A DNA stretch of 64,000 nt. It comes from a virus. The DNA is taken from positions 60,370-124,369 of the IMG/VR virus record IMGVR_UViG_3300042514_000542. One strand, written 5' to 3'. This document shows, piece by piece, positions 57-50,277 of this stretch. Under the pieces are notes generated by a model. It saw nothing but the letters and a program-made list of their open reading frames with translations. It was not told the origin of the DNA and ran no database searches. The first letter of the stretch is position 1, and every line of letters begins with the position of its first letter. Position numbers and translations under genes: made by a program.

Positions 57-85
57 ATCAGAACCTTATCTATTTTCATAACCAA

Positions 86-107
86 ATTATACTTCGGTTT
101 TAATTAA
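86..107 (-). promoter_or_regulatory. 22-bp intergenic cassette motif copy (stop/TATAAT-like box/start)
   Basis: +strand ATTATACTTCGGTTTTAATTAA; the stop of gene 104..304 lies inside TTAATTAA. Confidence 0.6.
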
Positions 108-304
108 TACTCCCAACCTTCATACTTCTTATAGGTTGGTTGACATTCTGGATCAAGTTTAGCCTTACGTCTTTCTTCCCTCTTCTTGGACTTCTTTAGA
201 AAGTCTCTATACCTTGATCGTTTATGTGAACCATCCTTCTTGGGAAAGTCCATATACCTTTCGATTTGTTCATTCATAATGAGATAATTGTTCAATCTTA
301 TCAA
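104..304 (-). CDS. hypothetical small basic protein (TTG start in track)
   Basis: ORF whose TAA stop is embedded in a motif copy; Lys/Arg-rich product. Confidence 0.35.
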   Translation of the reverse strand: MIRLNNYLIMNEQIERYMDFPKKDGSHKRSRYRDFLKKSKKREERRKAKLDPECQPTYKKYEGWEY

Positions 305-334
305 AAAGTTAAGTCTGTTCCGATAAATAATATT

Positions 335-1030
335 ATGGCAAAGAAGATAAATTTAGATGTTGAGAAGTTGAAAAGTTTAAATGATGAGGGTATGACGATA
401 ACGGAAATAAAATTACATTTTGGAGTCTCGGATGACTTAATTAGAAATTATTTCAAATTATATAATTTAATACCTAATCGAAAGAAGAGGAAATGGTCTG
501 AAGACGAAAAGTTAAAAATTTCTAAAAGAAGAAAGATTTTCCTAAAGGAGAATCCCGATAAACATCCTTGGAGGTCTAAGGATAAGTTTAAATCAGTTCC
601 ATGTGAGAAGGTTAAAGATTTTTTGAATAATTTAGGTGTGAAGTTTATTGAAGAATATGATCCAAATATACACAATAGAACATTTTCTATTGATATTGCC
701 ATGCCCGATAAGTTAATAGCATTAGAGATTAATGGTAATCAACATTACGAGAGTGATGGTAGTTTGAAACCATACTATCAAGAACGTCACGATCTATTAG
801 AATCCAACGGATGGACTGTATATGAAATACATTATAGTGCTTGCTTCAATCTCGATAAGTGGAAAAATTTTGTCGATGAATTAAAGTCATCTAATAATAA
901 GATTAATTTCAATTACTTCGAATATACACCTAACGAAATCAAAAAATGGATATGCTCTGATTGTGGTTGTGATGTTAGCCGTGGATCAATTAGATGTAAA
1001 TCTTGTTATTATATTTCTCGAATAAAATAA
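335..1030 (+). CDS. homing-endonuclease-like protein: N-terminal HTH, PD-(D/E)XK (Vsr/DUF559-like) nuclease core, C-terminal CxxC..CxxC zinc ribbon
   Basis: Probable start is MAKKINLD at 335, not the track's 266. Motif FSIDIAMPDKLIALEINGNQH resembles Vsr-like endonuclease cores. Only + strand gene in its neighbourhood and lacks the cassette motif. Confidence 0.55.
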   Translation: MAKKINLDVEKLKSLNDEGMTITEIKLHFGVSDDLIRNYFKLYNLIPNRKKRKWSEDEKLKISKRRKIFLKENPDKHPWRSKDKFKSVPCEKVKDFLNNLGVKFIEEYDPNIHNRTFSIDIAMPDKLIALEINGNQHYESDGSLKPYYQERHDLLESNGWTVYEIHYSACFNLDKWKNFVDELKSSNNKINFNYFEYTPNEIKKWICSDCGCDVSRGSIRCKSCYYISRIK

Positions 1031-1033
1031 TGG

Positions 1034-1110
1034 TAGCCCCGACACGATTCGAACGTGCATATATCCAATTACCCTTTTTCCTCGTTAGAAGCGAGAGGGG
1101 ATACAAGGCC
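1034..1110 (-). ncRNA. tRNA-like element (possible tRNA-Arg UCU, non-canonical fold)
   Basis: Minus strand: GGCCTTG..UA..TCTCG-CTTCTAA-CGAGG (anticodon-arm-like, TCT)..GCACG-TTCGAAT-CGTGT-CGGGGCT-A-CCA. T-arm, acceptor and CCA are clear; no D-arm could be folded by hand. Confidence 0.3.
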
Positions 1111-1125
1111 ATTGAAAGTTATTTA

Positions 1126-1386
1126 TTATAGAGTCTCATTAATTACACTATACAGTTCCTTCTTCAACTTAATAGCATCCTTAATAATATTATAAGAAAA
1201 CATAATGTCAACCATGCTTACACAAACACTATGAGCATCACGAAGGTCTAGGTTATTATCAAGACAATACTTTGTAGCCTGATTAGAAGCATCTTGCATG
1301 ATGCGTTCAAGATCGGTAACATCATCACCAATGGCAGCACCATATTTGTTATAGAGTCTCTTTTTCATATTACCAAATCTTTCCAA
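1126..1386 (-). CDS. hypothetical protein
   Basis: 86-aa ORF in the minus-strand gene tiling. Confidence 0.45.
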   Translation of the reverse strand: MERFGNMKKRLYNKYGAAIGDDVTDLERIMQDASNQATKYCLDNNLDLRDAHSVCVSMVDIMFSYNIIKDAIKLKKELYSVINETL

Positions 1387-1699
1387 GTGTTTCCATCACT
1401 TTTTCTTTAACTCTTTCGTCCCAGCCAGCAGTTCTATTAACACGACCATTCTTAATAACACCACGATTGGTCTTAGTATTAACAGCAGCAATCCTTATGG
1501 CATCAGCACCCACTTTTCTTGATACACCATTAGGAGTAACAGAAGAGAACACCTTGATTAGAATGTCTGTATTCTTTTTGACTACAAGAGTATATACATA
1601 CTCACCACCTTCGATTACCTTGTTCCAACCCTTATCAGGTTTGAAGAGTGTATCGGTTTCAATTTCTGTAACGGTAACGTATGTTGCAGCCATACACAA
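1370..1699 (-). CDS. hypothetical protein
   Basis: 109-aa ORF; ATG is 8 nt downstream of the TATAAT-like box of the motif copy at ~1705-1727. Confidence 0.5.
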   Translation of the reverse strand: MCMAATYVTVTEIETDTLFKPDKGWNKVIEGGEYVYTLVVKKNTDILIKVFSSVTPNGVSRKVGADAIRIAAVNTKTNRGVIKNGRVNRTAGWDERVKEKVMETLGKIW

Positions 1700-1704
1700 A
1701 TTAT

Positions 1705-1727
1705 AGTTCGGTTTTAATTAATCTCTT
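1705..1727 (-). promoter_or_regulatory. cassette motif copy
   Basis: +strand ATTATAGTTCGGTTTTAATTAA; flanked by the start of 1370..1699 and the stop of 1714..1953. Confidence 0.6.
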
Positions 1728-1953
1728 CCCACAAGTTTTCCAAAGCCTCAAGCATTTCACCTTCATTTCCCTTATAGTATTTCTCAAGATATGTAAAGAA
1801 TCCCGTGAAACCATATTCCTTAAAAGTTTCCCTAAGATTATTCTTATCCCTCCAACGTGTTCCAGACTTTATTTCCTCTAATACACATTTGAAAGCAGCA
1901 TCCTTAAAGTCTTCCATAGCTTTAACTTCTTCTGGAGATAATGTGATCTTCAT
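1714..1953 (-). CDS. hypothetical protein
   Basis: 79-aa ORF; stop inside a motif, start followed by the next motif. Confidence 0.5.
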   Translation of the reverse strand: MKITLSPEEVKAMEDFKDAAFKCVLEEIKSGTRWRDKNNLRETFKEYGFTGFFTYLEKYYKGNEGEMLEALENLWEEIN

Positions 1954-1959
1954 AACAGT

Positions 1960-1980
1960 ATTATAGTTCGGTTTAATTAT
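1960..1980 (-). promoter_or_regulatory. cassette motif copy (one T shorter)
   Basis: +strand ATTATAGTTCGGTTTAATTAT. Confidence 0.55.
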
Positions 1981-2143
1981 CCCTGTTTCTAAGTTCTTCT
2001 AGAATTTCTTCTTGAAGCTGTATTTGACGTTGTTGTGGCGTAATAACAATATCACGGGACACGACATAATATACTCCATAATATACTCCAATTGCTAATG
2101 CAATAGCAAATACAACAGCTACTAAAATTTCAGATGATTTCAT
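1973..2143 (-). CDS. small membrane protein (56 aa, below ORF-track cutoff)
   Basis: Hand translation MKSSEILVAVVFAIALAIGVYYGVYYV...; ATG at 2141-2143; stop in the TTAATTAT box. Confidence 0.35.
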   Translation of the reverse strand: MKSSEILVAVVFAIALAIGVYYGVYYVVSRDIVITPQQRQIQLQEEILEELRNRDN

Positions 2144-2144
2144 A

Positions 2145-2546
2145 TTAGTCTAAGCTCCAATCAATTTCCTCTTCCAATTCACCCACACACTCTTCCGCCC
2201 ATTGAGACTCTCGAAAATTCCTATAAGACATACCAACCCATAAGGAAAGCATAGCCAATAGTGCCAGTTCCAAAGTCTTGTGTTTGGAATGTTCTACATA
2301 GTCTGTAGTGGGAGGTTCCAAATAAGAACCACTATCATACGCCTCATGTCCAACTTCAAACTCCGTGAAGTCTTCATTCGCCATGATAGTAATGCCATCA
2401 AAGTTCATACCCCAATATCCATCCATGTCTTGATAGAACTCATTGGGGAATACACTAATCTTTTGCTTGAGATTACTCTCAACAAATTTTAGAAATACTT
2501 CCACTTCTTTATTAGCGAACTTAATCTGTCTTTCTAGGTTATCCAT
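2145..2546 (-). CDS. hypothetical protein
   Basis: 133-aa ORF followed by a motif copy. Confidence 0.5.
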   Translation of the reverse strand: MDNLERQIKFANKEVEVFLKFVESNLKQKISVFPNEFYQDMDGYWGMNFDGITIMANEDFTEFEVGHEAYDSGSYLEPPTTDYVEHSKHKTLELALLAMLSLWVGMSYRNFRESQWAEECVGELEEEIDWSLD

Positions 2547-2552
2547 GATAGT

Positions 2553-2574
2553 ATTATAGTTCGGTTTTAATTAT
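2553..2574 (-). promoter_or_regulatory. cassette motif copy
   Basis: +strand ATTATAGTTCGGTTTTAATTAT. Confidence 0.6.
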
Positions 2575-2737
2575 TGACAAATAACCAAATTCCCACAATT
2601 ATACATAAAGCAGCCAACAATGAAATTAGTGATAAAATAATTACCAACCAACCACATGTGATTATAATATCTATAATCACCAAAACTGGCAGAAAGATGA
2701 GAAACAATCCTAGATATTTTTTAAATATATTTGACAT
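2567..2737 (-). CDS. small membrane protein (56 aa, hand-called)
   Basis: MSNIFKKYLGLFLIFLPVLVIIDIIITCGWLVIILSLISLLAALCIIVGIWLFVNN; stop in the motif. Confidence 0.35.
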   Translation of the reverse strand: MSNIFKKYLGLFLIFLPVLVIIDIIITCGWLVIILSLISLLAALCIIVGIWLFVNN

Positions 2738-2820
2738 ATTTCTATTAACTAACTTTTATATATTGTGCTATCACTATCAGAATACCAATAATAATCGCAG
2801 CTATTACCATATCATTCATA

Positions 2821-3018
2821 TTAAAAATTTCCAAATTTTTCGTCAGAGGGAAAATCAGATTTGATTAGTTCCTGTATATCCTTCCTAAATTCATAATATT
2901 TGTCAAGAAGTTGACTCGCAACATTATCGGAAAAATATTCTGTATCGAATAATTCGTGAGCAACATTATCGAAGACACTTTCCAGTTCTTCGATAATGTT
3001 CTTTCTATTAGCGTTCAT
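2821..3018 (-). CDS. hypothetical protein
   Basis: 65-aa ORF in the tiling. Confidence 0.4.
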   Translation of the reverse strand: MNANRKNIIEELESVFDNVAHELFDTEYFSDNVASQLLDKYYEFRKDIQELIKSDFPSDEKFGNF

Positions 3019-3250
3019 ATTTAAGAATTAGAGGATTGGTTGGTAAAACATTAGAAAACTTTGCGGGACGTTTATAGTAACCACGAATTTGTTCACCTTT
3101 TTTATTATAGAAATGATTAAGCCTTCCATTAGTGGATGCTACAATCATTTTATGAGTCTTCTTAGCCGATTCAAGCTTCCTATCAAAGTCCTTAATGAAT
3201 AAGCTATAGAAGAATTGTTTAAATGTTCGTTTGTCTTTCTCGTCTTTCAT
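3008..3250 (-). CDS. hypothetical protein
   Basis: 80-aa ORF; motif copy at 3257-3278 upstream. Confidence 0.45.
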   Translation of the reverse strand: MKDEKDKRTFKQFFYSLFIKDFDRKLESAKKTHKMIVASTNGRLNHFYNKKGEQIRGYYKRPAKFSNVLPTNPLILKYER

Positions 3251-3256
3251 ATTGCT

Positions 3257-3278
3257 ATTGTAGTTCGGTTTTAATTAC
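3257..3278 (-). promoter_or_regulatory. cassette motif copy
   Basis: +strand ATTGTAGTTCGGTTTTAATTAC; stop of 3275..3676 inside. Confidence 0.6.
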
Positions 3279-3676
3279 GTAAATCCTACGGTTCCCATCA
3301 AACATTCTGGACGTTCAATGATCTTATATCCATAATCGGACATATCATACTTAAACCAGACCTCATTACTATAATCCTCACCCCACTTAAGTCCATCAAT
3401 ACAATCTAAGTAATGGGTTTCGATCAGTAGGTATTCATAGTATCCTTCACAGATACCATACGGATCATTGGACTTCTTAACAGTCCCAATAAGTTCATCT
3501 TTGTCTAGGAATGATCCACGATACTTTCCACCAGATTGCCAAGCATGATAAAGTTCTTTATCTTCTCTCCACTTATCCTTAGCAACACTATCACGATTTT
3601 TCTCGCATTCCCTATATACTTCCCAAGACTTAATCCAAGTTTCGGGAAATGCTATTAGATGGTGAATTTCTTTCAT
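3275..3676 (-). CDS. hypothetical protein
   Basis: 133-aa ORF. Confidence 0.5.
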   Translation of the reverse strand: MKEIHHLIAFPETWIKSWEVYRECEKNRDSVAKDKWREDKELYHAWQSGGKYRGSFLDKDELIGTVKKSNDPYGICEGYYEYLLIETHYLDCIDGLKWGEDYSNEVWFKYDMSDYGYKIIERPECLMGTVGFT

Positions 3677-3682
3677 ATCAGT

Positions 3683-3704
3683 ATGATATTTCGGTTTTAA
3701 TTAA
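3683..3704 (-). promoter_or_regulatory. cassette motif copy
   Basis: +strand ATGATATTTCGGTTTTAATTAA. Confidence 0.6.
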
Positions 3705-3988
3705 TCAAATTCAAACCCATAGATCACATAATCATTCCCACATTTGATTTCAACTAATCCACCACGATACAAATCAGTATAGTTTTCGTGTAGTTCATCA
3801 AAACCTTCTCTTGTTGGAGAGATTGATATAATGGTTCCTGATTCATAATAATCAGTCCGATACAATGAATCAACTGTTACGGTATAATCATTATAATTAG
3901 GATGGGACTTAGCTACTGATTGTAACTCTTTGATATGATCCCACCTAAGATTCTGTTTCTCTTGATACTCTTTGAGTTTCTTATTCAT
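3701..3988 (-). CDS. hypothetical protein
   Basis: 95-aa ORF. Confidence 0.5.
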   Translation of the reverse strand: MNKKLKEYQEKQNLRWDHIKELQSVAKSHPNYNDYTVTVDSLYRTDYYESGTIISISPTREGFDELHENYTDLYRGGLVEIKCGNDYVIYGFEFD

Positions 3989-4716
3989 GCTTCTAGAAAG
4001 TTCTTATAACGCTTTGTATCAACCACAAACCCACTGGAGTCCTTACGACCTTTACCTAGTGCTACAAGTCCTGCAATGGTATTCTTAGGATCAATGAAGC
4101 GTAGGTCATGCTTAGTTGCATCAATAACTTTCTTACCCTTATACTTGGCGGGAAGTCTCTTATCAAAGACTACCGCTACGTTTCCGCCATTACCCAAGAC
4201 GATATTAACTCGGTCTTGATTATCTTCCTTACGAGAAAATGTAAGGTGATAGTTGGATGGGAACTTACCCATAAGAAAGTTCATAACCCTCTTAAGGTTA
4301 GGTGTGTAATCATAAAATTGAACCGTAGGAAAGTGTTCCATGAAGGTCTTACCATCAAGCTTAACAGTCTCCCATGCAACATCAGAAGTAAGGTTAAGAC
4401 GAAAAGATACTAGCTCACCTTTCTTAGCAGCAGTATTAACCTTGGCATTAATCTCCTTATAGAGTTGGCGAAGGAATGCTTCACGATTCTCATGGAAGAA
4501 CCTAGTCTTTTTAATACGAGCTTGTTGAACCCTTGGATATGCGCCCATTCCAGAACTGAAAAGGCAAGCCTTAATACATCCAGAACTTGCATTAGGACAA
4601 ATGTTCTTACCACCTAATGTATAAGGTGCAAGATGCAAGCCAAAAGAAGTCCAACCATATTTTGTATTCTTCTCCAGTTTAGGATTAGATCGTGATAGTA
4701 GTTTTTGCGTGGTCAT
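3985..4716 (-). CDS. hypothetical protein with Cys cluster (CPNASSGCIKAC), possibly metal-binding
   Basis: 243-aa ORF; ATGA overlap with the downstream gene. Confidence 0.5.
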   Translation of the reverse strand: MTTQKLLSRSNPKLEKNTKYGWTSFGLHLAPYTLGGKNICPNASSGCIKACLFSSGMGAYPRVQQARIKKTRFFHENREAFLRQLYKEINAKVNTAAKKGELVSFRLNLTSDVAWETVKLDGKTFMEHFPTVQFYDYTPNLKRVMNFLMGKFPSNYHLTFSRKEDNQDRVNIVLGNGGNVAVVFDKRLPAKYKGKKVIDATKHDLRFIDPKNTIAGLVALGKGRKDSSGFVVDTKRYKNFLEA

Positions 4717-4722
4717 AGCTAG

Positions 4723-4744
4723 ATTATATTTCGGTTTTAATTAA
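4723..4744 (-). promoter_or_regulatory. cassette motif copy
   Basis: +strand ATTATATTTCGGTTTTAATTAA. Confidence 0.6.
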
Positions 4745-4956
4745 GCCCTACAAACCGTAGAGGTAAAATTCTCTGTATCGAACTCAACAGTAATACTTTC
4801 ACCATAAGTAACCCATGTAGATATAATATCCATAATCTCTTCCTTCTTTTCATCAAAGTCGTCGGAAGTTGCAATATCTTCATAATCCAATGCGTCTTTT
4901 ACAGCATATTCTACTGCATCCGGTGTCTTAAATGATACTCTAATCTTCATACCCAA
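4741..4956 (-). CDS. hypothetical protein
   Basis: 71-aa acidic ORF. Confidence 0.45.
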   Translation of the reverse strand: MGMKIRVSFKTPDAVEYAVKDALDYEDIATSDDFDEKKEEIMDIISTWVTYGESITVEFDTENFTSTVCRA

Positions 4957-4978
4957 ATTGTAGTTCGGTTTTAATTAA
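4957..4978 (-). promoter_or_regulatory. cassette motif copy
   Basis: +strand ATTGTAGTTCGGTTTTAATTAA. Confidence 0.6.
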
Positions 4979-5232
4979 GCACCCTTCAGATAAAGAACAC
5001 CATCATTATCTTCAATAACCATAAATGTTGGATCATCGGAATCTTTAGTAGAACCAATCTTCATAAATTCGAAGTTATCAATAGGTATTGGAGTTGATGT
5101 AATAGTTGTATATATAATAGTGCCATCAGCATCACACATATCCAAAAAATCCAGTAGATTTTTCCAAGTTGTTATATCTAGTTTGTTCATATTATTTTGA
5201 TTTAAGAAAGAGACATAAAGGTTCAATAACAC
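4975..5232 (-). CDS. hypothetical protein
   Basis: 85-aa ORF. Confidence 0.45.
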   Translation of the reverse strand: MLLNLYVSFLNQNNMNKLDITTWKNLLDFLDMCDADGTIIYTTITSTPIPIDNFEFMKIGSTKDSDDPTFMVIEDNDGVLYLKGA

Positions 5233-5497
5233 ATACTCCCATTTGAGTTGCTACATCCGCTTTATGAAAGAAAGTAGGTGCATCAAAGTCATTCTTATAT
5301 ACAAATGCCGTTGTCACTTCATCCAATCTAACAAGAAATTGTGGATGTTCTTTTGTGATATTGTGATTAATTAAGATATCACATAGATGTTCGTATGCCT
5401 TATCAGAAGACTTAATTGGGCCTTGGAATACAAACCCATGAGTTTCGCTATAATCCTTTTTTAATTCCACAATATCCATATTTCTGTAGGTAATCAT
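5192..5497 (-). CDS. hypothetical protein
   Basis: 101-aa ORF. Confidence 0.45.
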   Translation of the reverse strand: MITYRNMDIVELKKDYSETHGFVFQGPIKSSDKAYEHLCDILINHNITKEHPQFLVRLDEVTTAFVYKNDFDAPTFFHKADVATQMGVCVIEPLCLFLKSK

Positions 5498-5503
5498 ATT
5501 GTA

Positions 5504-5525
5504 ATTATATTCCGGTTTTAATTAT
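5504..5525 (-). promoter_or_regulatory. cassette motif copy
   Basis: +strand ATTATATTCCGGTTTTAATTAT. Confidence 0.55.
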
Positions 5526-5572
5526 TGTAAATTAGGTTTAATATGTTTATTAGATTAAAAAGTTTATTAGAA

Positions 5573-5818
5573 TTAACCAATTCTAGTAGCAGCCGCCTTA
5601 ATAGATCCCATGGTGCGTCTATACTTACCAAGTGTATCAAATACTTTATCTTGTTCTTTGGTTAGAAGTTGTGCGATTTCTGTAGCACTTAAAGAAGGAG
5701 ATCTTGTATGTGATTGAATGATACCACGAAGCTTAATCATAAGTTCGTGTGTTACAGCATCGCCATGATTTTGAAATAGTGTACCATCATCTGTCTTGTA
5801 TACTTTTACTTGTTGCAT
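5573..5818 (-). CDS. hypothetical protein
   Basis: 81-aa ORF. Confidence 0.45.
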   Translation of the reverse strand: MQQVKVYKTDDGTLFQNHGDAVTHELMIKLRGIIQSHTRSPSLSATEIAQLLTKEQDKVFDTLGKYRRTMGSIKAAATRIG

Positions 5819-5823
5819 ATCTA

Positions 5824-5845
5824 ATTATACTTCGGTTTTAATTAA
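5824..5845 (-). promoter_or_regulatory. cassette motif copy
   Basis: +strand ATTATACTTCGGTTTTAATTAA; followed by ~200 nt of non-coding sequence. Confidence 0.6.
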
Positions 5846-6047
5846 AGGGATTCTGGTTTCGGCAACGCCATTCCAACGATCTAAGGTTTAACTTTTAATG
5901 TTTAACAACTAAAGGAACAAGTTTTAAGTTTTGAGTTTTATCCCAATTCGAAAATTGTATCGTTGTCATTAACATTATCGGTAGTTCGATTATCCCATTA
6001 CAGGATACTGTGCTGTTGAAACATTGTCACCTACTCCCAGAAATCAT

Positions 6048-6509
6048 TCAAATTTTTGTAGTGCCATTATAGACATCAATATCGTCTTGTAGATCTTCAA
6101 TCTGTTTTTGAACTCTTGTTACATTGGCATCAACTTCCTTACTAGGAATTGTGTTGATATAGTTCACCGTAACGTTGACATACTTACCATCAACATATTC
6201 ACTCTCCTTAAGTTCCTCAATAGGTTGACCAGAACGGAATGAAGTCCAAAATGCTAGTTCAGCCTTAGCTTCTGTAAGCATGATAAGCTTATCAGCAATA
6301 CCAACATTGGCCTTGGCAATCCTAGTCTTAAGATCAATTAGGAATGCCCACTCTTCTTGGAGAGACTTAAGAAGATCATTGGAATTATAATCCTGTTCCA
6401 CACCCTGCTTATACCTATTGTTGGCTACAATTTGTTTTTGTAGCTTGGTGATTCTACCAGTCGTGCGATTCTTTTCCTTTAGTGCTTTTGCGATACTCAT
6501 TGTGTTCAT
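6048..6509 (-). CDS. hypothetical protein
   Basis: 153-aa ORF. Confidence 0.5.
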   Translation of the reverse strand: MNTMSIAKALKEKNRTTGRITKLQKQIVANNRYKQGVEQDYNSNDLLKSLQEEWAFLIDLKTRIAKANVGIADKLIMLTEAKAELAFWTSFRSGQPIEELKESEYVDGKYVNVTVNYINTIPSKEVDANVTRVQKQIEDLQDDIDVYNGTTKI

Positions 6510-6515
6510 AGTTGT

Positions 6516-6537
6516 ATTATAGTTCGGTTTTAATTAA
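6516..6537 (-). promoter_or_regulatory. cassette motif copy
   Basis: +strand ATTATAGTTCGGTTTTAATTAA. Confidence 0.6.
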
Positions 6538-7187
6538 TAACCCCATGCTTTAAGGGTATGTTGGAATGGTTGTGATTCAATTCCTTTAACCAATTCAAGC
6601 ATTTTGGTGGCGATATCATTGATTTCTTTTTGTGCGTGTTCGGATTTTCTAAGTTTTAGAAAGTTTGCAAAGCTTCTCATGTTAAAGGAAACGTCTCCTT
6701 GAATTTGCGAGTTATACGTCTTAAAGAATCGTGCTGATTCCTTTGCCCTCTTACGTCCAAGAATAGGCTCTAGGTCTTTGAGGCATTGATGATAGAGTCT
6801 ATTAGATTCAATAGAAAAATCGTTCAATCTTTCAAGCCAAGTCATGTTTGGTGTCTCCCCATGAATATGGGAAATCTCTACATCCCAATCTTCTGGAAGA
6901 TAATACTTATCCTCTTTAAGTTCTTTATACCTAGCAGACTCCGCATTCATGCTAGAGATACGATGCTTAAGTAAATGAATGTGACTGGCAATATCTGTAT
7001 CTACTAGGAAGTGAACCATTCCTTTTTCGAATGGTGTCTCATGCCCATTCTCCCATAACATCTTAATCAAATTGGGAACACGATTCTTCTTATCTTCGGT
7101 TAGTTCTCTTGAAGTGCTAGTCCATGCTGAACATGCTATAACTTCGTCTGATCCATAGAATCCGATTAGTTCTACTTTATTATCCAT
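6534..7187 (-). CDS. thyX: flavin-dependent thymidylate synthase (ThyX-like)
   Basis: 217 aa; KHRISSMNAESARY matches the ThyX RHR-x7-S-xRY signature region. Confidence 0.55.
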   Translation of the reverse strand: MDNKVELIGFYGSDEVIACSAWTSTSRELTEDKKNRVPNLIKMLWENGHETPFEKGMVHFLVDTDIASHIHLLKHRISSMNAESARYKELKEDKYYLPEDWDVEISHIHGETPNMTWLERLNDFSIESNRLYHQCLKDLEPILGRKRAKESARFFKTYNSQIQGDVSFNMRSFANFLKLRKSEHAQKEINDIATKMLELVKGIESQPFQHTLKAWGY

Positions 7188-7190
7188 ATA

Positions 7191-7667
7191 TTATTGATAC
7201 TGATATGGTTTAACTTCTCTTGGAAGAGGATCAGTAGCACCTTTGGGTAATGATCCGACATTAGTAAAGCTATAATTGATCTTGGACATAGCAGCATTGT
7301 ATTCAGCGGCCAATGAGTTATAACTAGCAATTACACCAGCAACTTCTTGTTCCCAAAGATTGAATTGTTCTTTGTCTGTCCTATCCCAATCCTTACGGGG
7401 AGTTCCCTCGTAACTACCTTCCATTGAAGCTAGACGAGCTTTATATACTTGAACATCTGCAAGTTTCTTATCACATTCGGCAGCAACATTCTTGAACCAT
7501 TCATAACGTTTCAACAGAAGTCTTGGATCAACTTGTTCTTCTGCAACAATAGATGCTTTACCGATCCATGCACATCCTTTACCAAGGACACTGAATGTAA
7601 CCCATCCAACAATAAATGCCAGAACTAATGTTATAATTTTAAGTGTTTTCATATTATTGACTTTCAA
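7191..7667 (-). CDS. membrane-anchored protein (possibly LemA-like)
   Basis: N-terminal transmembrane helix; 158 aa. Confidence 0.4.
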   Translation of the reverse strand: MKVNNMKTLKIITLVLAFIVGWVTFSVLGKGCAWIGKASIVAEEQVDPRLLLKRYEWFKNVAAECDKKLADVQVYKARLASMEGSYEGTPRKDWDRTDKEQFNLWEQEVAGVIASYNSLAAEYNAAMSKINYSFTNVGSLPKGATDPLPREVKPYQYQ

Positions 7668-8199: not shown

Positions 8200-8205
8200 A
8201 GTTGA

Positions 8206-8227
8206 ATTATAGTTCGGTTTTAATTAA
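8206..8227 (-). promoter_or_regulatory. cassette motif copy
   Basis: +strand ATTATAGTTCGGTTTTAATTAA. Confidence 0.6.
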
Positions 8228-8229
8228 GC

Positions 8230-41513: not shown

Positions 41514-41535
41514 TTATAGTTCGGTTTTAATTAAT
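41514..41535 (-). promoter_or_regulatory. cassette motif copy (printed coordinates may be off by 1 nt here)
   Basis: +strand ATTATAGTTCGGTTTTAATTAA; encodes the C-terminal ..LIKTEL of the YopX gene. Confidence 0.6.
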
Positions 41536-41957: not shown

Positions 41958-42175
41958 CCATCATAAACTCCAAGCTGTCTCCAACCTCTTCTTCCCCAAA
42001 CAAAATCACAACCATCCTTGTGTCCACTCTCGTCTGTAATATCAACTAACCCTTTACAATTTTCACAACATTTAAAATTGTCCAAATCAGAATTTTTTAA
42101 CTTAGTCCCATCAAACGGACAATACCAATATCCATCTTGATCATAATTGGCTAGACATTTGGGACATCTTATCAT
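41954..42175 (-). CDS. zinc-ribbon protein
   Basis: 73 aa with CPKC...CP and CCENCK Cys pairs. Confidence 0.45.
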   Translation of the reverse strand: MIRCPKCLANYDQDGYWYCPFDGTKLKNSDLDNFKCCENCKGLVDITDESGHKDGCDFVWGRRGWRQLGVYDG

Positions 42176-42717: not shown

Positions 42718-43109
42718 ATATATTTTTCTGTTTTAATAAATGACTCTGTATGAGTTTCGTTCAAGATTTTATACTTCATATCTGGATAATGTAGTTCCAT
42801 ATATAAGTCTAACTCATCTTCATTTAAAGCGCATACAAAAAACTTCTTTTCATCAATACCAACCTCATACATATTATGTAGAATGGTATCGTAATAGATG
42901 ACTTTGTAAACTCTACCATAACCGACACGAATAGCGTATTCAGCAAATAAGAAAAACACACAGATGACCATCCACCAATTAGTATCAGTTCCGAATATCC
43001 AACCAACACCACCAAACTTACACATTAAGAGCAATCCGATAATTGACATGATCCAGCCCCACCAATCAAATGGTTTAAATAATCTACCTACTTCTTTTGG
43101 TGTGTTCAT
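42714..43109 (-). CDS. membrane protein
   Basis: 131 aa with two or three TM helices. Confidence 0.5.
   Translation of the reverse strand: MNTPKEVGRLFKPFDWWGWIMSIIGLLLMCKFGGVGWIFGTDTNWWMVICVFFLFAEYAIRVGYGRVYKVIYYDTILHNMYEVGIDEKKFFVCALNEDELDLYMELHYPDMKYKILNETHTESFIKTEKYI
42718..42745 (-). promoter_or_regulatory. degenerate cassette motif copy
   Basis: +strand ATATATTTTTCTGTTTTAATAAATGA upstream of the macro-domain gene start. Confidence 0.35.
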
Positions 43110-43291
43110 TTGGTTCCTAATTTTTGTTTAATCGCTTCTTCAAGTTTATCTATGACTTTGGTCAATTCCGGTGTCTTTCCAATATTTTCCTTTTTATATA
43201 GTTTGAAATATCTCTCCCTCAAAGAGACTAATACTTCATCTACAGGTTCGGGTTCTACTTTCTTTTTTCGTTTAGCAGCCATTATACCCAA
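43106..43291 (-). CDS. hypothetical protein
   Basis: 61-aa ORF. Confidence 0.4.
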   Translation of the reverse strand: MGIMAAKRKKKVEPEPVDEVLVSLRERYFKLYKKENIGKTPELTKVIDKLEEAIKQKLGTK

Positions 43292-43473
43292 TCCTCCTTT
43301 TTACCATATGCATAAAAATGATTAGTGTTGTTTCTAATTGAGCCTTCTGCATGACCATCCCAATAACACGTATTTGATAGTTCTTCCATCTTCTCACGAA
43401 TAGAGTTTAACTCTTCTGCGCCATACCCCCACTCATCTTTCAGTTCCTTTAGTAGTGTCGTAATCATAGTCAT
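43282..43473 (-). CDS. hypothetical protein
   Basis: 63-aa ORF. Confidence 0.4.
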   Translation of the reverse strand: MTMITTLLKELKDEWGYGAEELNSIREKMEELSNTCYWDGHAEGSIRNNTNHFYAYGKKEDWV

Positions 43474-43475
43474 AG

Positions 43476-43497
43476 TATAGTTCGGTTTTAATTAATA
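43476..43497 (-). promoter_or_regulatory. cassette motif copy
   Basis: +strand ...TATAGTTCGGTTTTAATTAA. Confidence 0.55.
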
Positions 43498-46365: not shown

Positions 46366-46577
46366 GTTAAATCTATTTCTATGTTAAAGTTTTCTTTGTT
46401 TGTCTCAATAATACCTTCTTCTTCGAAATATCTAAGGTAATTTATAAGCTTTTCATCTATAAACCAATTCGACTCTCTAGGTAGATGTGGAAGTGCCATC
46501 AATATGTATATTGCACCTATCTCTTCTAGAGTCATCCCATCAGCTAATTCTAAAGGTAATGTTATTTCCTTTTTCAT
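46356..46577 (-). CDS. hypothetical protein
   Basis: 73-aa ORF. Confidence 0.45.
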   Translation of the reverse strand: MKKEITLPLELADGMTLEEIGAIYILMALPHLPRESNWFIDEKLINYLRYFEEEGIIETNKENFNIEIDLTWL

Positions 46578-47491
46578 ACTTTATATTTTTTCCACACAGC
46601 ACTTTGACCCCTACCAAACTTAAGAAGCTTCATATCGTTTTCAAGTTCAGATAATAGTAGTTTTGCTGTTTGTTCTTGAATACCACAAGTCTCCATCACA
46701 CGATTTAAGGTGATCAATGGAGGCTCATCAATAGCTAGAATGAGTTCTTTTCTTGTTTCTTTGATGGGTTCTTTTTTAACTTTCACTTCTTCGGATTTTT
46801 CGGGTTTTTCATATTCACCGATAAACTCATAACCACCGGATGTAAAAATCGCTTCGTGCATCATTGTAGCACCAAATCTGTTTTTGTAAACATCAAAAAG
46901 TCTAGAATCTTTATTATCCTTGTTCTTCAAGATTTCGATGTTCGTATCAACAGCATATAGAAGGGATGTTCCACCACGTATCTCGCCACTCACTGTCTCT
47001 TGAACAATGAATAGAATGGTACAATCATGATCCTTAGCCCTCTTAACTAGATTATTAGTGAAATATTCATTCTTGGCTTTAGAATTCAGTTCCTCAATAG
47101 TGGTTAAAGTCTGGTAGGAATCGATAACCATAAAGTCCCTATCGGGAATGGTATCCATGATTTCCTCAATATCTGTTATAGTTCCAACTTCAAGGTTTTC
47201 GATACCAAGCCTCTTACAGTTATAGGCTATTTGAAATACTGCTTCCTCACCAGTGGAGTAAGCAACATTATAACCCACATTGGTAAGCATTTCGGCAAGA
47301 GTTAAGGCAAATACGCTCTTACCCACTCCCGGTCTTGCCTTGAGTGTTATAGTAGAACCGGGAAGTATACCACCCATACCAAATATAGCATCCAAGTTAT
47401 CTTCACCCGTTTTAAGCCTGTTAAAAAAAATATCCGGTATTTGAATATCGGATATTTTCGTAAATGGTGTCTTTTCTAAATCCAGTGTCAT
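46574..47491 (-). CDS. RadA/Sms-like RecA-fold ATPase (Sak4-like recombination protein)
   Basis: GGILPGSTITLKARPGVGKS Walker A in a RadA-like context; KNRFG motif near the C-terminus. Confidence 0.5.
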   Translation of the reverse strand: MTLDLEKTPFTKISDIQIPDIFFNRLKTGEDNLDAIFGMGGILPGSTITLKARPGVGKSVFALTLAEMLTNVGYNVAYSTGEEAVFQIAYNCKRLGIENLEVGTITDIEEIMDTIPDRDFMVIDSYQTLTTIEELNSKAKNEYFTNNLVKRAKDHDCTILFIVQETVSGEIRGGTSLLYAVDTNIEILKNKDNKDSRLFDVYKNRFGATMMHEAIFTSGGYEFIGEYEKPEKSEEVKVKKEPIKETRKELILAIDEPPLITLNRVMETCGIQEQTAKLLLSELENDMKLLKFGRGQSAVWKKYKV

Positions 47492-47493
47492 GG

Positions 47494-47515
47494 AGCTAGT
47501 GTATTTCGGTTTTAA
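47494..47515 (-). promoter_or_regulatory. cassette motif copy
   Basis: +strand AGTGTATTTCGGTTTTAATTAA. Confidence 0.6.
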
Positions 47516-47703
47516 TTAACATTATTAATGTGCCAGTAGCTTATTTCTGCATGGAAGTCCTTCTCAGTCTTTATCGACCCCTCCTTTACGTATATAAATG
47601 ATTCAGGTCGTTCATTATCATACCCCCAAATCTCGATCATATTATCATCCACCATCTGGAAACTGTATGACCCAATCACTCCTTCGTATATCGCTTCTTT
47701 CAT
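47512..47703 (-). CDS. hypothetical protein
   Basis: 63-aa ORF. Confidence 0.45.
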   Translation of the reverse strand: MKEAIYEGVIGSYSFQMVDDNMIEIWGYDNERPESFIYVKEGSIKTEKDFHAEISYWHINNVN

Positions 47704-47704
47704 T

Positions 47705-48601
47705 TTATAGTCTTGTTAATACGTTTTTTACTAACGATTTAAATTTATATGTCATTTTGTTATTTGGGAATTGCTTCCAGTATTGTATCACAACTGCGAA
47801 GAATTCATCTGAGTTCAACAACCCATATTCCGGGAAACCCAATTTTTTAGACATGTTAGACCTGATGGTTGGGGTTATTGTCTTACCCTTACCTTTTTTC
47901 ATGGCTTTATAATACATGTCAATCATATCTTGATATGCGTGTTTCAATAAAACCTCTGTCTGTCTTGGTATCTGGTCTGCTACGTGATGGGCATATTCGT
48001 GGATGTAAATATCATGGTCATCCATTTGTTTTGAATTTATAAAAATCGAATCACTAAAATAAAGTCCCCTATCCCTTTTATCACTATGTTTTTTAGTGTC
48101 GGGATTTCTTAATAAATCGGTAATTATAAATGTTGGTCTTCTATTGGGTAGTAAATCTTTTATATAGATCATAAATTTTCTAATCACACTATTTAAAATT
48201 CTATAATTATATGAATTTTTAGAAAAATCACCATCAACAGTATTAGTGTCTATTAGAACTTTCACACCCATATATTCCAAAACTTGAGTGTAATGGGTTT
48301 TAGATGGTTTTTTTAAACCATTTAAATATTTATCAAACTCATTATTCAAAAAGATTGAAGCCTTTTCTGGGTAGATCTCTAATAGATTATCATAACTACT
48401 TCGGATAATTTTATCATTTTCATCATCGAAATCATCCACATCACTATCAGTAATATAATCAATCCAATTCTGTTTAAATTGTGGAGTGTTAAAATCGACA
48501 TTTCCAATGTATGATAGTTCCCTCTTCCTTAGAGGGTTTCTCTGTTTTCTCTCATAAAACAATTTAAATGGCATCATCAATATATTTATCGATTTTTCCA
48601 A
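47705..48601 (-). CDS. hypothetical protein with HExxH zinc-metallopeptidase-like motif
   Basis: HEYAHH motif; 298 aa. Confidence 0.45.
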   Translation of the reverse strand: MEKSINILMMPFKLFYERKQRNPLRKRELSYIGNVDFNTPQFKQNWIDYITDSDVDDFDDENDKIIRSSYDNLLEIYPEKASIFLNNEFDKYLNGLKKPSKTHYTQVLEYMGVKVLIDTNTVDGDFSKNSYNYRILNSVIRKFMIYIKDLLPNRRPTFIITDLLRNPDTKKHSDKRDRGLYFSDSIFINSKQMDDHDIYIHEYAHHVADQIPRQTEVLLKHAYQDMIDMYYKAMKKGKGKTITPTIRSNMSKKLGFPEYGLLNSDEFFAVVIQYWKQFPNNKMTYKFKSLVKNVLTRL

Positions 48602-49179
48602 GATTTATAGTGATCATCGCAGAGAGATTTATACCAGTTCTCCGTTCGAAGAACTCCTACATCACCACATTTTTCACAAGTTGTAGTGGATTTTCCTAGA
48701 ATTTCATCAAGTTTTCGATACTCCTCATAATATAATTTATAATCCTCACCATAGAAATCACCTTGATCACGTAATTCTCCGAATTTCTCTTTGAAAATAC
48801 AAGTCTTATAGTGAACATCATGACCTTTAGATTTAGCATCATCTAGTAACTTCTTCATTTCCGTGAAATATTCACGGATGATTTCTTTCCAGCCAATACC
48901 ACATTCAAAACCATATCGAAGATTTGTTAGGTCTTCTTTTTTCATATTCACTTCTGGGCAAAAGTTATGGTATCTATCATACCATTCTTCTACATATGGT
49001 GATAACTCCAAAGTGAATTCGGGAAACTCATTAACAAGATCCCACCATTCCTCACTTATATTACTTTTTACAAATTCCATACTTTCGATTATTTTTCCAC
49101 CAGATTCAATTATAAATCTGATTGGACAGTATTTCTTCTTCCCTAGCTTTCTTAAGCTTATAATGGGTCGATTCTTCAT
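48586..49179 (-). CDS. hypothetical protein
   Basis: 197-aa ORF. Confidence 0.5.
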   Translation of the reverse strand: MKNRPIISLRKLGKKKYCPIRFIIESGGKIIESMEFVKSNISEEWWDLVNEFPEFTLELSPYVEEWYDRYHNFCPEVNMKKEDLTNLRYGFECGIGWKEIIREYFTEMKKLLDDAKSKGHDVHYKTCIFKEKFGELRDQGDFYGEDYKLYYEEYRKLDEILGKSTTTCEKCGDVGVLRTENWYKSLCDDHYKSWKNR

Positions 49180-49183
49180 GCAC

Positions 49184-49205
49184 CCACTATACTTCGGTTT
49201 TAATT
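49184..49205 (-). promoter_or_regulatory. cassette motif copy
   Basis: +strand ...CTATACTTCGGTTTTAATTAA. Confidence 0.6.
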
Positions 49206-50277
49206 AAGCCTTTATCGTGCAACCAAGTGTAGAGATGTTCGCCTTACCATTGGATATAAGAACTTGTTCTACAGAGAAAAGATCCTTATCCTCACCGACA
49301 CTTACGATGTTGAAACCTTGTTGCCAATTCATTCCCGAACCGTATGCAGCGTCCAATGAACATAAACAACCACCTTCGAATCCATAATACTGTTTCTCTG
49401 GACGACCACCAATAGATGGAACTCTTTGGCATGATGATCCAATTCTATGAGTGTGACCATGTAGAATGGATGTGTGCCACTTATCAAGTTCACCCCTAGC
49501 AGACGCACCCCCATTTTTTCGAACCGTTTCACCATGAGTTACAATAAGACCATTAAGATCTACGTAATCGACATGTTCGACCTTATCCTTAAATTCTCCC
49601 ATGAATACATTTTCATATGAGAGAATATCAGTAATGTTTGATAAACTTCCAAGCTCTCCAAGTCTATCTGACAGATATCGTCTCCATCTACCACTAACAG
49701 ATTGTCCCGAATGGTTACTAACCGTTTCGTAAATCTTAGCACCACCAGAAACACCAATCAACTCATGTAGGAAAGCATGATATGCTTCTCTCTCTGATTG
49801 AAGCGACCAACTATTCTTAAGATCTTTTGGATATTTTGAAATAGCCAAGAAGTCCATTGTGTCGCCATTTAGAATGATGGTCTTTGGCTTTAATTGAAAT
49901 ATTGTTTCAAGAAAAATATCAATCGCCTTCTTATCCTCACAACCGAAGTGGAAATCGGAACCAACAACGGCATAATCATTAAGCGTTATTTTTGACGAGT
50001 TTTCGTATTTGGGTTCAATCTTAATCGGTGCTAATTGTGATAGGAACTCAAGAACCTCATCTTCATTCCTTTGAAACCTTTTAGGTTTATCTCTTTGGAG
50101 ATTATCATTGATATACGGGACGACATCAGGAACTCCTGTTCCGTCAACCCCAAAATCTTCGATATATGCTCTATACCAATCTGCTGCTGTTGACTTGGCA
50201 ACACCAAACTCTTCTTTAATTTGGCTATACGTATAACCGTTTTGCCTCGCTGAAATTACCTGTTGTTTTACATTCAT
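49204..50277 (-). CDS. HTH-domain + metallophosphoesterase protein
   Basis: N-terminal helix-turn-helix (YSQIKEEFGVAKSTAADWYRAY); GSDFH, NGDTMD, THGE and GHTH phosphoesterase motifs. Confidence 0.5.
   Translation of the reverse strand: MNVKQQVISARQNGYTYSQIKEEFGVAKSTAADWYRAYIEDFGVDGTGVPDVVPYINDNLQRDKPKRFQRNEDEVLEFLSQLAPIKIEPKYENSSKITLNDYAVVGSDFHFGCEDKKAIDIFLETIFQLKPKTIILNGDTMDFLAISKYPKDLKNSWSLQSEREAYHAFLHELIGVSGGAKIYETVSNHSGQSVSGRWRRYLSDRLGELGSLSNITDILSYENVFMGEFKDKVEHVDYVDLNGLIVTHGETVRKNGGASARGELDKWHTSILHGHTHRIGSSCQRVPSIGGRPEKQYYGFEGGCLCSLDAAYGSGMNWQQGFNIVSVGEDKDLFSVEQVLISNGKANISTLGCTIKA

Follow-up and report, generated by a model that had tools for sequence, protein, structure and literature searches.

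A near-invariant 22-base motif recurs 36 times along one strand of the genome of an uncultured, deep-branching T4-like myovirus. It probably serves this phage as its regular promoter for pre-late (early and/or middle) transcription: an element without a −35 that would direct leaderless mRNAs and carry an upstream box read by a lineage-specific factor. If so, the messages concerned would possess neither a leader nor a ribosome-binding site, an unusual design for the T4-like group. The DNA analysed, referred to below as the window, is a stretch of 64,000 nucleotides.

A 22-base motif on the coding strand

The motif has the layout AATTAAAACCG, 3–4 nt, TAYAAT, 6 nt, ATG, which places the box AATTAAAACCG at about −26 to −16, with the ATG as +1. 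Both strands of the window were searched with the minus-strand pattern TTAATTAAAACCGAAMTAYAAT, yielding 15 exact copies and 35 at three or fewer mismatches, where 0.00 exact matches and 0.01 at three mismatches are expected by chance. An indel-tolerant search recovered a 36th copy at 1960–1980, in which one A is absent from the A-run (ATAATTAAACCGAACTATAAT), and these 35 plus one account for the “about 36” copies of an earlier note on this sequence. All 36 lie on the minus strand, which is the coding strand, from 86–107 to 49186–49207. No copy was detected on the plus strand of the window at up to three mismatches, nor in the part beyond 49207 that holds the tail module, confirming that the motif is strand- and module-specific. 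The claim that it delimits nearly every gene was overstated: it precedes about 36 of the roughly 80 genes on the minus strand between 85 and 49210, and those without it mostly start right beside the stop codon of the gene before, or overlap it.

The earlier figure of 6–9 nt for the distance from the end of the motif to the ATG is right, although the spacing is tighter than that range suggests. Of the 36 copies, 27 stand 6 nt from the ATG, two each stand at 7 and 9 nt, and one stands at 5 nt. The other four have no adjacent ATG and are followed by leaders of 24, 50, 90 and 117 nt. At approximately two-thirds of the sites the TAA of the upstream ORF falls inside the motif (position 2, 6 or 19), 10–27 nt ahead of the next AUG, a consequence of tight gene packing. 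At the remaining third or so the upstream ORF stops a few nucleotides before the motif, and the proposal that the motif supplies the upstream stop codon holds for the larger group only. A Shine-Dalgarno (SD)-like 4-mer was found in none of 29 motif-led genes, against a background rate of 9%, in agreement with the reported absence of an SD; the phage as a whole has essentially none. No −35, hairpin or RNA structure accompanies the motif. The region is A-rich and unstructured: 82-nt segments around the motif fold at −5.9 kcal/mol, compared with −12.8 for random same-strand segments, and the first 40 nt from the ATG at −1.9, compared with −4.4 for random.

Copies along the array

The first copy of the array, 49186–49207 (all copies are on the minus strand), lies 6 nt from the ATG of 48586–49179 (197 aa). 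The same 6-nt spacing is seen for 47498–47519, ahead of a DnaB/KaiC-like ATPase gene (46574–47491), for 38497–38518, ahead of an RNA ligase gene (37075–38490), and for 37057–37078, 34492–34513 and 33755–33776, which precede 36370–37050, 33769–34485 and 33311–33748, respectively. It also holds for 41513–41534 (gene 40817–41506), where the upstream ORF runs through the motif and ends at the TAA within TATAAT. The gene behind 43474–43495 (43282–43473, 63 aa) has in-frame ATGs at 0 and 6 nt.

The copy at 31433–31454 is 6 nt from the ATG of a 59-aa ORF (31247–31426) that overlaps an Rnl1-like gene (30168–31250); in relatives the motif is found directly 5′ of Rnl1. A PARP/WGR-like gene (28655–29890) starts 7 nt after 29898–29919, and 6 nt separate 27872–27893, 24673–24694 and 24009–24030 from 27422–27865, 24010–24666 (RNA-ligase domain) and 23514–24002 (phrog_624). 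Together with a 27-aa ORF whose ATG is 9 nt away, 23095–23116 forms a mini-cassette just 111 bp ahead of the next copy, 22984–23005, itself 7 nt from the ATG of rIIA (21048–22976). The small genes described behind the motif are therefore real, as the 27-aa and 59-aa ORFs illustrate. Spacings of 6 nt recur at 20564–20585 (20348–20557, 69 aa) and at 19180–19201, which precedes a PRPP synthetase-like gene (18253–19173), while 18213–18234 is 9 nt from the ATG of 17763–18203.

Two of the copies without an adjacent ATG lie in this part of the array. One, at 17042–17063, is 117 nt 5′ of NAMPT (15425–16924) and antisense within the 5′ end of a plus-strand LAGLIDADG ORF (16978–17766). The other, 14673–14694, is followed by a 24-nt leader and then 14298–14648; its orthologue in the related phage L019 has a 6-nt spacer instead. 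Between them, 15000–15021 is 6 nt from the ATG of 14691–14993. Towards the start of the window the 6-nt spacing is seen at 12237–12258 (gene 11925–12230), 8206–8227 (7654–8199), 6516–6537 (6048–6509), 5504–5525 (two mismatches; 5192–5497), 4957–4978 (4741–4950), 4723–4744 (3985–4716), 3683–3704 (3275–3676), 3257–3278 (3008–3250), 2553–2574 (2145–2546), the copy with the 1-nt deletion (1714–1953) and 1700–1721 (1370–1693); 5824–5845 is 5 nt from the ATG of 5573–5818. The copy at 86–107 is 6 nt from the ATG of an ORF that runs past the window start, and in relatives (L002) the array continues past the corresponding edge.

The motif resembles a −10 element placed for leaderless transcription

A logo built from 171 distinct copies in the window and related phages shows T17, A18 and T22, which correspond to −12, −11 and −7, at 99–100%, with the inner positions of the hexamer varying and no conserved positions upstream of the motif. 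A hexamer with an invariant T, A and final T matches the σ70 −10 element. A C or T immediately precedes the ATG in 155 of the 171 copies, with A as the following base; start sites in E. coli prefer a pyrimidine at −1 and a purine at +1. From this geometry we infer promoter activity and a start site at the ATG. TANNNT some 10–12 bp before the start codon is an established signature of leaderless genes (PMC3160421), and in Deinococcus it has been shown experimentally to work as a −10 element (PMC12340547). The suggestion that the motif is promoter-like, with a −10-like hexamer set for leaderless transcripts, is supported in silico.

Hybrid copies in four relatives (L012, L018, L023 and L028) carry a canonical TTGACA exactly 16 nt 5′ of the hexamer, so that the upstream box falls inside the spacer between the two. 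The remaining two copies without an adjacent ATG stand in tandem with other promoters. Downstream of the copy at 20324–20345 come a canonical TTGACA-N16-TACAAT promoter (from 20316) and, beyond it, rIIB (19260–20273), a tandem kept in L021 and L019; after 11388–11409 come a TTGACA-type promoter (from 11355) and, beyond it, a Ro60-like gene (9639–11297), a tandem kept in L019 and L004. Both copies are conserved in three lineages. These ATG-less copies and the TTGACA hybrids favour a promoter over a translation signal. The phage also contains a late-type motif (TAAATA, 5 nt, ATG) that abuts ATGs, as do its canonical σ70-type promoters; all three promoter types, the late type included, have leaderless geometry.

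Lineage-specific versions of the upstream box

Orthologues sharing no more than 50–80% protein identity are still preceded by an unaltered motif, which, judging from these comparisons, is under purifying selection. More distant lineages, whose rIIA is 38–42% identical to that in the window, have upstream boxes of their own (TAAAACAC, TAAAACGT and AAAAACTA) in an otherwise matching layout, followed by TAnnnT, mostly 6 nt, and ATG, with a matching strand bias and fixed internal spacing. Such discrete versions would be the pattern expected of a promoter co-evolving with its reader. Conservation exceeds the need of a −10 element, as the earlier note had remarked, in keeping with recognition by a dedicated factor. 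Gene conversion could account in part for how uniform the copies are within the genome.

We scanned 86 proteins of the window against Pfam and found no sigma, MotA, AsiA or RNA polymerase domain among them. The factor is accordingly hypothetical and would be encoded outside the window. If motif promoters are the first used after infection, either a phage factor would be injected with the DNA or the host enzyme would read the box unaided.

Proposed mechanism and alternatives

In the model that we favour, the TAYAAT 3′ half of the motif would act as a −10 element for a σ70-family factor. Its position exactly 6 nt before the ATG would set the start at the A of the start codon, giving a leaderless mRNA whose 5′-terminal AUG would be bound directly by the ribosome with no need of an SD. 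The 5′ half (AATTAAAACCG, spanning roughly −26 to −16) may substitute for the missing −35 and serve as the lineage-specific recognition determinant. Its reader would most likely be phage-encoded and co-evolving (an activator, a sigma-remodelling protein or a phage sigma), and less likely the host polymerase through an unusual contact. Downstream genes of each unit would be translated through stop/start coupling. In this model the timing class of the promoter is conjectural, as are the factor itself and where it comes from.

An ordinary host-σ70 promoter that dispenses with a phage factor is unlikely but deserves consideration. The box would then be an unusual spacer or proximal element read by the host holoenzyme, possibly through sigma region 3 or the β′ zipper, a contact for which the “Z-element” is an example, and uniformity would come from selection for maximal strength and gene conversion among copies. 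The −10 pattern and start-site geometry fit σ70, the window yielded no gene for such a factor, and the host enzyme must read the motif if these are the first promoters used; T4 early promoters, too, are conserved past the canonical elements (PMC2988021). However, discrete box versions at a fixed spacing suit a co-evolving reader better, although different hosts could match this, and the coexistence of TTGACA-N16-TAnAAT promoters in the same genomes suggests two classes with different requirements. We consider it improbable that the motif is instead an RNA-level element, whether for SD-independent translation (re-)initiation or as an endoribonuclease site just before the AUG that releases leaderless mRNAs. 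The fixed 6-nt spacing without an SD, the A-rich unstructured region suited to ribosome loading and the upstream stop inside the motif all agree with such a role; no terminators were found between motif-led units, so the motif would also lie within longer read-through RNAs, and an additional function at this level is conceivable. Against this, ATG-less copies are conserved in several lineages, hybrid copies have canonical −35 hexamers at the correct distance, the pattern of fixed and free positions in the hexamer fits a DNA −10 across lineages and not RNA pairing or structure, and no complementarity to the 3′ end of 16S rRNA was seen by eye. Of the two explanations offered earlier for the excess conservation, a phage-encoded factor or an RNA-level role, the former is favoured, the latter being disfavoured by the ATG-less copies, the hybrids and the folding.

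More doubtful still is the idea that a phage-encoded RNA polymerase, whether single-subunit and T7-like or otherwise non-canonical, uses the motif as its promoter, recognising the whole ~22 bp and starting a few nucleotides after CTATA, which would leave leaders of 5–10 nt in place of truly leaderless transcripts. Promoters of the T7 group, at ~20 bp, are likewise near-invariant within a genome and discretely different between lineages at a few specificity positions, and the motif starts with TAAT and contains CTATA, a loose likeness to TAATACGACTCACTATA. Yet its 3′ half, unlike those promoters, has the σ70 −10 signature in every lineage (T, A and final T fixed, inner positions free) and can pair with TTGACA at N16, and the Pfam scan of 86 window proteins found no phage RNA polymerase. 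T4-type late-promoter-like motifs are present, and T4-type phages depend on the host polymerase (PMC2988021). The least probable reading makes the motif a recombination site, a repeated homology patch or site-specific target that shuffles cassettes, a role also proposed for PeSLs, with promoter activity secondary. Plasticity is high in this region, where relatives have lost most of the gene adjacencies, and small ORFs have been inserted between the motif and a conserved gene. Junctions with the motif were broken in 69 of 79 cases and those without it in 115 of 159, a modest difference between non-independent loci that lends the earlier notion of a modular shuffling cassette slight support. Nucleotide homology blocks often start exactly at the motif, but they would do so in any case, since it forms an island of conservation where genes begin. 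A length of 22 bp is on the short side for homologous recombination, and the strict ATG spacing and −10 pattern would be left unexplained.

Comparison with known promoter systems

Besides the T7-group promoters considered above, three known systems share features with the promoter that we propose. The PeSL/PmSL elements of T4-type phages are also numerous near-identical cassettes between small genes in a plastic non-structural region, conserved past apparent promoter need (PMC4122927). The components of a PeSL are a stem-loop, an AT-rich region, a −35 and a −10 separated by N17, an SD and a start codon (PMC4122927). In the motif, by contrast, conservation is limited to 22 bp; a stem-loop, a −35 at N17 and an SD are all lacking, and we rejected the PeSL reading by definition. 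MotA/AsiA-dependent middle promoters of T4 similarly pair the host −10 with an upstream box, specific to the phage, in place of the −35, and rIIB, before which the motif stands in tandem with a canonical promoter, is listed among T4 middle-promoter genes (PMC2988021). The MotA box, (a/t)(a/t)(a/t)TGCTTtA, is centred at −30 and lies 12 ± 1 bp from the −10 (PMC2988021), whereas AATTAAAACCG differs in sequence and ends 3–4 bp from it. A MotA-type promoter was rejected by definition on both counts; the window proteins gave no MotA, AsiA or sigma domain, and T4 middle transcripts have leaders and an SD, in contrast to the SD-less, leaderless geometry of motif-led genes.

The third likeness is to the Thermus phages phiYS40 and P23-45 and to the “−10 adjacent to ORF” genes of Deinococcus-Thermus and Actinobacteria (PMC3160421, PMC12340547), which share a σ70 −10 without a −35 and a start site at the start codon. 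The leaderless middle and late promoters of phiYS40 and P23-45, those of phiYS40 reportedly lacking a −35, are likewise numerous within a single large phage genome and lack an SD. The phage studied here differs in being T4-like and, as we take from its sample series, in coming from non-thermal waters. Those phage and cellular promoters have only the −10 in common, whereas a second near-invariant box is present here at −26 to −16.

Phage and gene content

The window has a G+C content of 30–39%, and its minus strand holds nearly all genes. Profile searches placed the tail sheath, a tape-measure protein and further tail genes at ~50–64 kb, and identified rIIA, rIIB, nicotinamide phosphoribosyltransferase (NAMPT), PRPP synthetase, three RNA-ligase-type proteins, a Thg1-like enzyme, a Ro60-like RNA-binding protein, a PARP/WGR-like protein, DNA methylases, a DNA ligase, ThyX and several LAGLIDADG endonucleases. 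The top matches of the structural proteins were T4-type myoviruses at no more than 42% identity, a ceiling that also applied to rIIA and the tail sheath when compared with isolates. Megablast against 50,697 phage records returned no near-identical isolate, and the baseplate-region protein encoded at 53120–54454 had no tblastn match; a metagenomic contig contains the window sequence at 100% identity. We take the phage to be uncultured, deep-branching and T4-like. Flavobacterium phage immuto was rejected as a relative, given the presence of a family A polymerase, and six single matches in genome collections were discarded as clues to the host, each proving unrelated to the window in a similarity check.

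A near-invariant element precedes minus-strand genes

The sequence TTAATTAAAACCGAAMTAYAAT occurs in 15 exact copies and in 35 copies with three or fewer mismatches, and a 36th copy at 1960–1980 lacks one A. With only 0.01 expected by chance, this confirms the repeated motif described in the earlier note. Every copy is on the minus strand, within 86–49207, bearing out the statement that the plus-strand endonuclease genes and the tail module at ~50–64 kb are free of it. An ORF-opening ATG follows the end of the motif after 6 nt in 27 of the 36 copies; the gap is 5 nt at one copy, 7 nt at two and 9 nt at two, and the remaining four have no adjacent ATG. The motif was also said to supply the TAA stop of the upstream gene, which holds at roughly two in three sites and fails at the remainder. 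That it delimits nearly every gene was too strong a claim: 29 of the 95 called minus-strand genes are motif-led in a strict test, while 11 follow a late-type motif, 39 abut or overlap the preceding stop and 16 fall in none of these classes. The motif-led genes are fewer than the motif copies because the strict test leaves out the four copies without an adjacent ATG, the one with the deletion, the one ahead of a 27-aa ORF and one whose ORF runs off the window.

The sequence logo proposed in the earlier note drew on 171 distinct copies, taken from the window and related contigs, and yielded a −10-type pattern, with T17, A18 and T22 conserved at 99–100%, T or C at position 19 and A or C at position 21; pattern-based retrieval inflates conservation at motif positions 2–15, and not elsewhere. 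Numbered with the A of the ATG as +1, the invariant bases fall at −12, −11 and −7, which are the best-conserved positions of sigma70 −10 elements by frequency (PMC3160421). A pyrimidine, C or T, occupies position −1 in 155 of 171 copies, followed by A at +1. The upstream block, AATTAAAACCG, lies at about −26 to −16, 3–4 bp from the −10. Upstream of the motif the logo of 171 copies contains no information, and there is therefore no −35 element. At 42716–42738 a degenerate relative, TTTATTAAAACAGAAAAATATAT, is directly followed by the ATG of 42172–42717 and looks like a decayed motif copy within an operon.

The motif as a probable promoter for leaderless mRNAs

The most likely function of the motif is that of a promoter yielding leaderless mRNAs, a reading we hold with reasonable though incomplete confidence, and several results point to function at the level of DNA rather than as an RNA element. 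A TANNNT hexamer 10–12 bp before the start codon is a recognised signature of leaderless genes (PMC3160421), and in Deinococcus this signal was shown by experiment to be a −10 element (PMC12340547). The motif has this TANNNT, with the 6-nt spacer in 27 of 36 window copies and T17, A18 and T22 almost invariant across the 171, and a Shine-Dalgarno (SD)-like 4-mer lies between promoter and start in none of the 29 motif-led genes (background 9%), in agreement with the SD absence reported from the first reading. The one indication of where transcripts begin, the preference for a pyrimidine at −1 and A at +1, supports a 5′ end at the start codon.

Hybrid promoters bear on the same question. In four related loci (L012, L018, L023 and L028) a perfect TTGACA stands exactly 16 nt upstream of the hexamer, the spacer being occupied by (T)TGATTAAAACCG or TTGGTTAAAACCG; the hexamer is therefore where a −10 belongs relative to a canonical −35. 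The motif copies before rIIB (19260–20273) and the Ro60-like gene (9639–11297) have no ATG at the usual distance, yet are kept in three lineages. Just downstream of each, in tandem, sits a canonical promoter, TTGACAAAYCGARAAAC...TAnAAT, at 20316–20288 and 11355–11328, respectively. This type is conserved in relatives (L021 at 11828, L019 at 362 and 9434, L004 at 8998), often 6 nt from the ATG; in the window the gaps to the ATG are longer, at 15 and 30 nt. These canonical promoters may be the true host-only (immediate-early) class.

With the two second promoters, an endonuclease gene insertion and a short leader account for the four copies lacking an adjacent ATG; a tRNA or other non-coding RNA behind them was rejected on a negative ARAGORN search. 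The insertion is a plus-strand LAGLIDADG gene (16978–17766) between the minus-strand motif copy at 17042–17063 and NAMPT (15425–16924), its 5′ end antisense to the motif. In two related loci, L011 and L019, a late-type motif with its start codon likewise lies antisense, immediately ahead of NAMPT, and may mark the same insertion.

An RNA-level role, raised in the earlier note alongside a phage factor, fared less well as a primary function. Motif windows are less structured than random same-strand windows (−5.9 versus −12.8 kcal/mol per 82 nt) and no Rfam family reached its gathering score at the motif, so a structured RNA or known RNA family was rejected. Terminator-like hairpins are not enriched (5 in 1–20000 versus 9.3 expected), nor are sigma70 −35/−10 pairs (85 versus 80.5 expected). 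As there are no terminators between units, the motif must also be transcribed within longer RNAs, and it may have a secondary role there.

Lineage-specific versions of the upstream box

A core scan of viral contigs recovered 32 loci on ~20 contigs from at least 10 metagenomes. Their coding DNA is only 64–80% identical to the window, and their rIIA, RNA ligase, PARP-like and helicase orthologues are 48–81% identical at the protein level, with the motif ahead of them essentially unchanged. In somewhat more distant relatives the three bases between block and hexamer vary; block, hexamer and 6-nt spacer are fixed. A single-sequence rIIA scan of viral contigs found nothing; an rIIA alignment was used to reach distant lineages, in which rIIA is 27–45% identical. 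Several of these have a repeated element of their own, with the same layout and strand restriction: gATAAAACAC-N5-TATAAT-N6-9-ATG in L046 (11 copies per locus), AATAAAACAC-N5-TAnnnT-N6-9-ATG in L048 and L049 (10 copies), AATAAAACGT-N5-TAnnCT-N6-ATG in L050 (8 copies) and TAATAAAAAACTA-N3-TAnnAT-N6-ATG in L044 and L053 (14–15 copies), these counts being coding-strand copies of 8-nt cores, about half of which have the complete TAnnnT-spacer-ATG layout. Versions of the box include TAAAACAC and TAAAACGT, and across lineages they fall into CCG, CAC, CGT and CTA types. The gap between box and hexamer is fixed in each genome, and the hexamer keeps only its T, A and final T. Two more distant rIIA-bearing contigs (L056, 13374–21429; L057, 5715–12385) lack the motif and carry a complex repeat, in which paired GTAAGTC..TATCAACGAGTTACGA flank a G+C-rich hairpin, with 13 and 7 core copies, respectively.

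We regard it as likely but unproven that the upstream box is read by a lineage-specific factor, probably encoded by the phage, our confidence falling just short of an even balance. Such a reader is favoured mainly because the box is near-uniform within a genome and differs in discrete ways between lineages, a pattern that would be expected when a recognition site co-evolves with its reading protein; different hosts, or gene conversion among copies, could also contribute. Pfam searches with 86 window proteins detected no sigma, MotA, AsiA or RNA polymerase domains, and none of these was among the matches listed in PHROG scans of the same proteins. Nor do the 86 include a single-subunit phage RNA polymerase. 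The sole helix-turn-helix match is the N-terminus of 49204–50277. The reader, if it exists, would be encoded outside the window, in the other ~150 kb of the ~210-kb genome.

A late-type motif and near-absence of Shine-Dalgarno sequences

A second motif, TAAATAA-N4-ATG, occurs 10 times versus 0.94 expected: on the minus strand at 63322–63335, 62689–62702, 60356–60369, 58397–58410, 55742–55755, 25805–25818, 16922–16935 and 13943–13956, and on the plus strand at 324–337 and 16967–16980. The genes behind it encode the sheath and other tail proteins, NAMPT and four LAGLIDADG endonucleases, among them the two on the plus strand; in sequence it resembles the T4 late promoter TATAAATA. The T4 late element spans −13 to −6; if that is right, the 5 nt from TAAATA to the ATG put +1 on the A of the start codon. 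The position of this motif, directly against the ATGs of these genes, suggests leaderless late genes as well and late expression of the endonucleases. Leaderless geometry is thus shared by the motif and late-type classes and, in several relatives, by the canonical TTGACA class.

SD-like 4-mers are likewise missing from the 11 late-motif genes and the 16 others, and occur before 7 of the 39 genes that abut or overlap the preceding stop (ATGA or TAATG); at 7 of 95 minus-strand genes, the SD is essentially absent overall, at background level. The stop/start overlaps suggest that translational coupling is the rule for internal genes.

Comparison with known systems

Like T4 middle promoters, the motif has a phage-specific box in place of a −35, and, as at MotA-dependent promoters, a good sigma70 −10 is found without a −35. 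Box sequence and geometry nevertheless place the motif outside the MotA class: the MotA box, (a/t)(a/t)(a/t)TGCTTtA, is centred at −30 and lies 12±1 bp from the −10 (PMC2988021), versus 3–4 bp for AATTAAAACCG at −26 to −16. The other proposed parallel, the PeSL, comprises a stem-loop, −35, N17, −10, SD and start codon (PMC4122927); stem-loop, −35 and SD are all missing here, so the motif is no PeSL, and since the upstream ORF mostly ends inside the motif there is no room for the stem-loop. The idea of modular shuffling found weak support: motif junctions have lost upstream adjacency in 69 of 79 cases and other junctions in 115 of 159, counts drawn from redundant loci in a plastic region where small genes are hard to detect. 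A further likeness is to phiYS40, a Thermus phage whose middle and late promoters are reportedly (an account by Sevostyanova from 2007) leaderless and devoid of a −35.

Among other promoter types, the T4 late promoter (gp55; TATAAATA at about −10) does not fit, the motif having TAYAAT instead. An extended −10 would place TGn directly upstream of the hexamer, where positions −15 and −14 are both A and −13 is variable. Bacteroidetes sigmaA promoters have TTTG at −33 and TAnnTTTG at −7, and TTTG-N17-22-TAnnTTTG had no matches versus 2.9 expected. A sigma28-like reading draws on the likeness of CCGAAATA to GCCGATAA; there is no TAAA at N15, and TAnnnT suits sigma70 better. An A/T-rich box near −25 together with leaderless genes recalls an archaeal TATA box, a reading rejected in view of the bacterial −10 pattern, the hybrids with TTGACA, the late motif of T4 type, rIIA/rIIB and the T4-like sheath genes. 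A LAGLIDADG target site was ruled out, since a phage with 36 of them in its genome would destroy itself, and it is the late-type motif that precedes the endonuclease genes. Every paper listed by full-text literature searches with the motif sequence bore a title on an unrelated subject.

Implications

The repetition noted at first reading therefore stands, and its interpretation is partly supported. T4-type phages are the textbook case of staged redirection of host RNA polymerase, and their mRNAs have leaders and SD sites. Tentatively, and as a doubtful proposition, the whole uncultured T4-like clade might run an essentially leaderless, SD-free programme, in which canonical sigma70, motif and late classes all start at the ATG and the main class needs a phage-encoded factor that reads the −26 to −16 box and co-evolves with it across lineages. 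We know of no sigma domain or appropriation factor that binds there. On the favoured reading of the motif, a T4-like lineage would apparently be expressed from leaderless mRNAs, with a new kind of −35 substitute adjoining the −10 element. Sister lineages would supply natural ‘specificity variants’ of this substitute, so that the reader could be found by phylogenetic co-variation, and these variants might provide orthogonal promoter/factor pairs for engineering. Annotation is affected as well: gene callers relying on SD sites will mis-start genes in such phages, and exact start codons can be read from the motif, which also delimits transcription units.

RNA-related genes and a tRNA-like stretch

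Motif-driven genes at ~9600–41000 form a dense RNA-repair and tRNA-related island, with the three RNA-ligase-type proteins, the Thg1-like, Ro60-like and PARP/WGR-like proteins, a PTH2 peptidyl-tRNA hydrolase, a cyclic-phosphate-processing receiver domain, a histidine phosphatase and a YqeY-like protein. Two window proteins match the ATP-dependent DNA ligase family and two match an intein splicing domain; we guess them to be the neighbouring ORFs 39046–39897 and 39884–40777, in which case the ligase gene at ~39046–40777 would be split or intein-bearing, with a late-type motif preceding the upstream ORF.

Right after the Ro60-like gene, 1.4 kb of the minus strand (8230–9640) lacks ORFs, starting with TTGACA-N17-TAAATA at 9629. 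ARAGORN and Rfam find nothing in this stretch and fold z-scores are weak. It contains about six tRNA-like modules in permuted order, the T-arm and 3′ acceptor strand ahead of the 5′ acceptor strand and D-arm, with 11 copies of CAGCAAATAA between the modules. The predicted fold of 8690–8835, with an outer stem, T-arm, closed acceptor-like stem and D-arm, would correspond to the architecture of a YrlA-type Y RNA.
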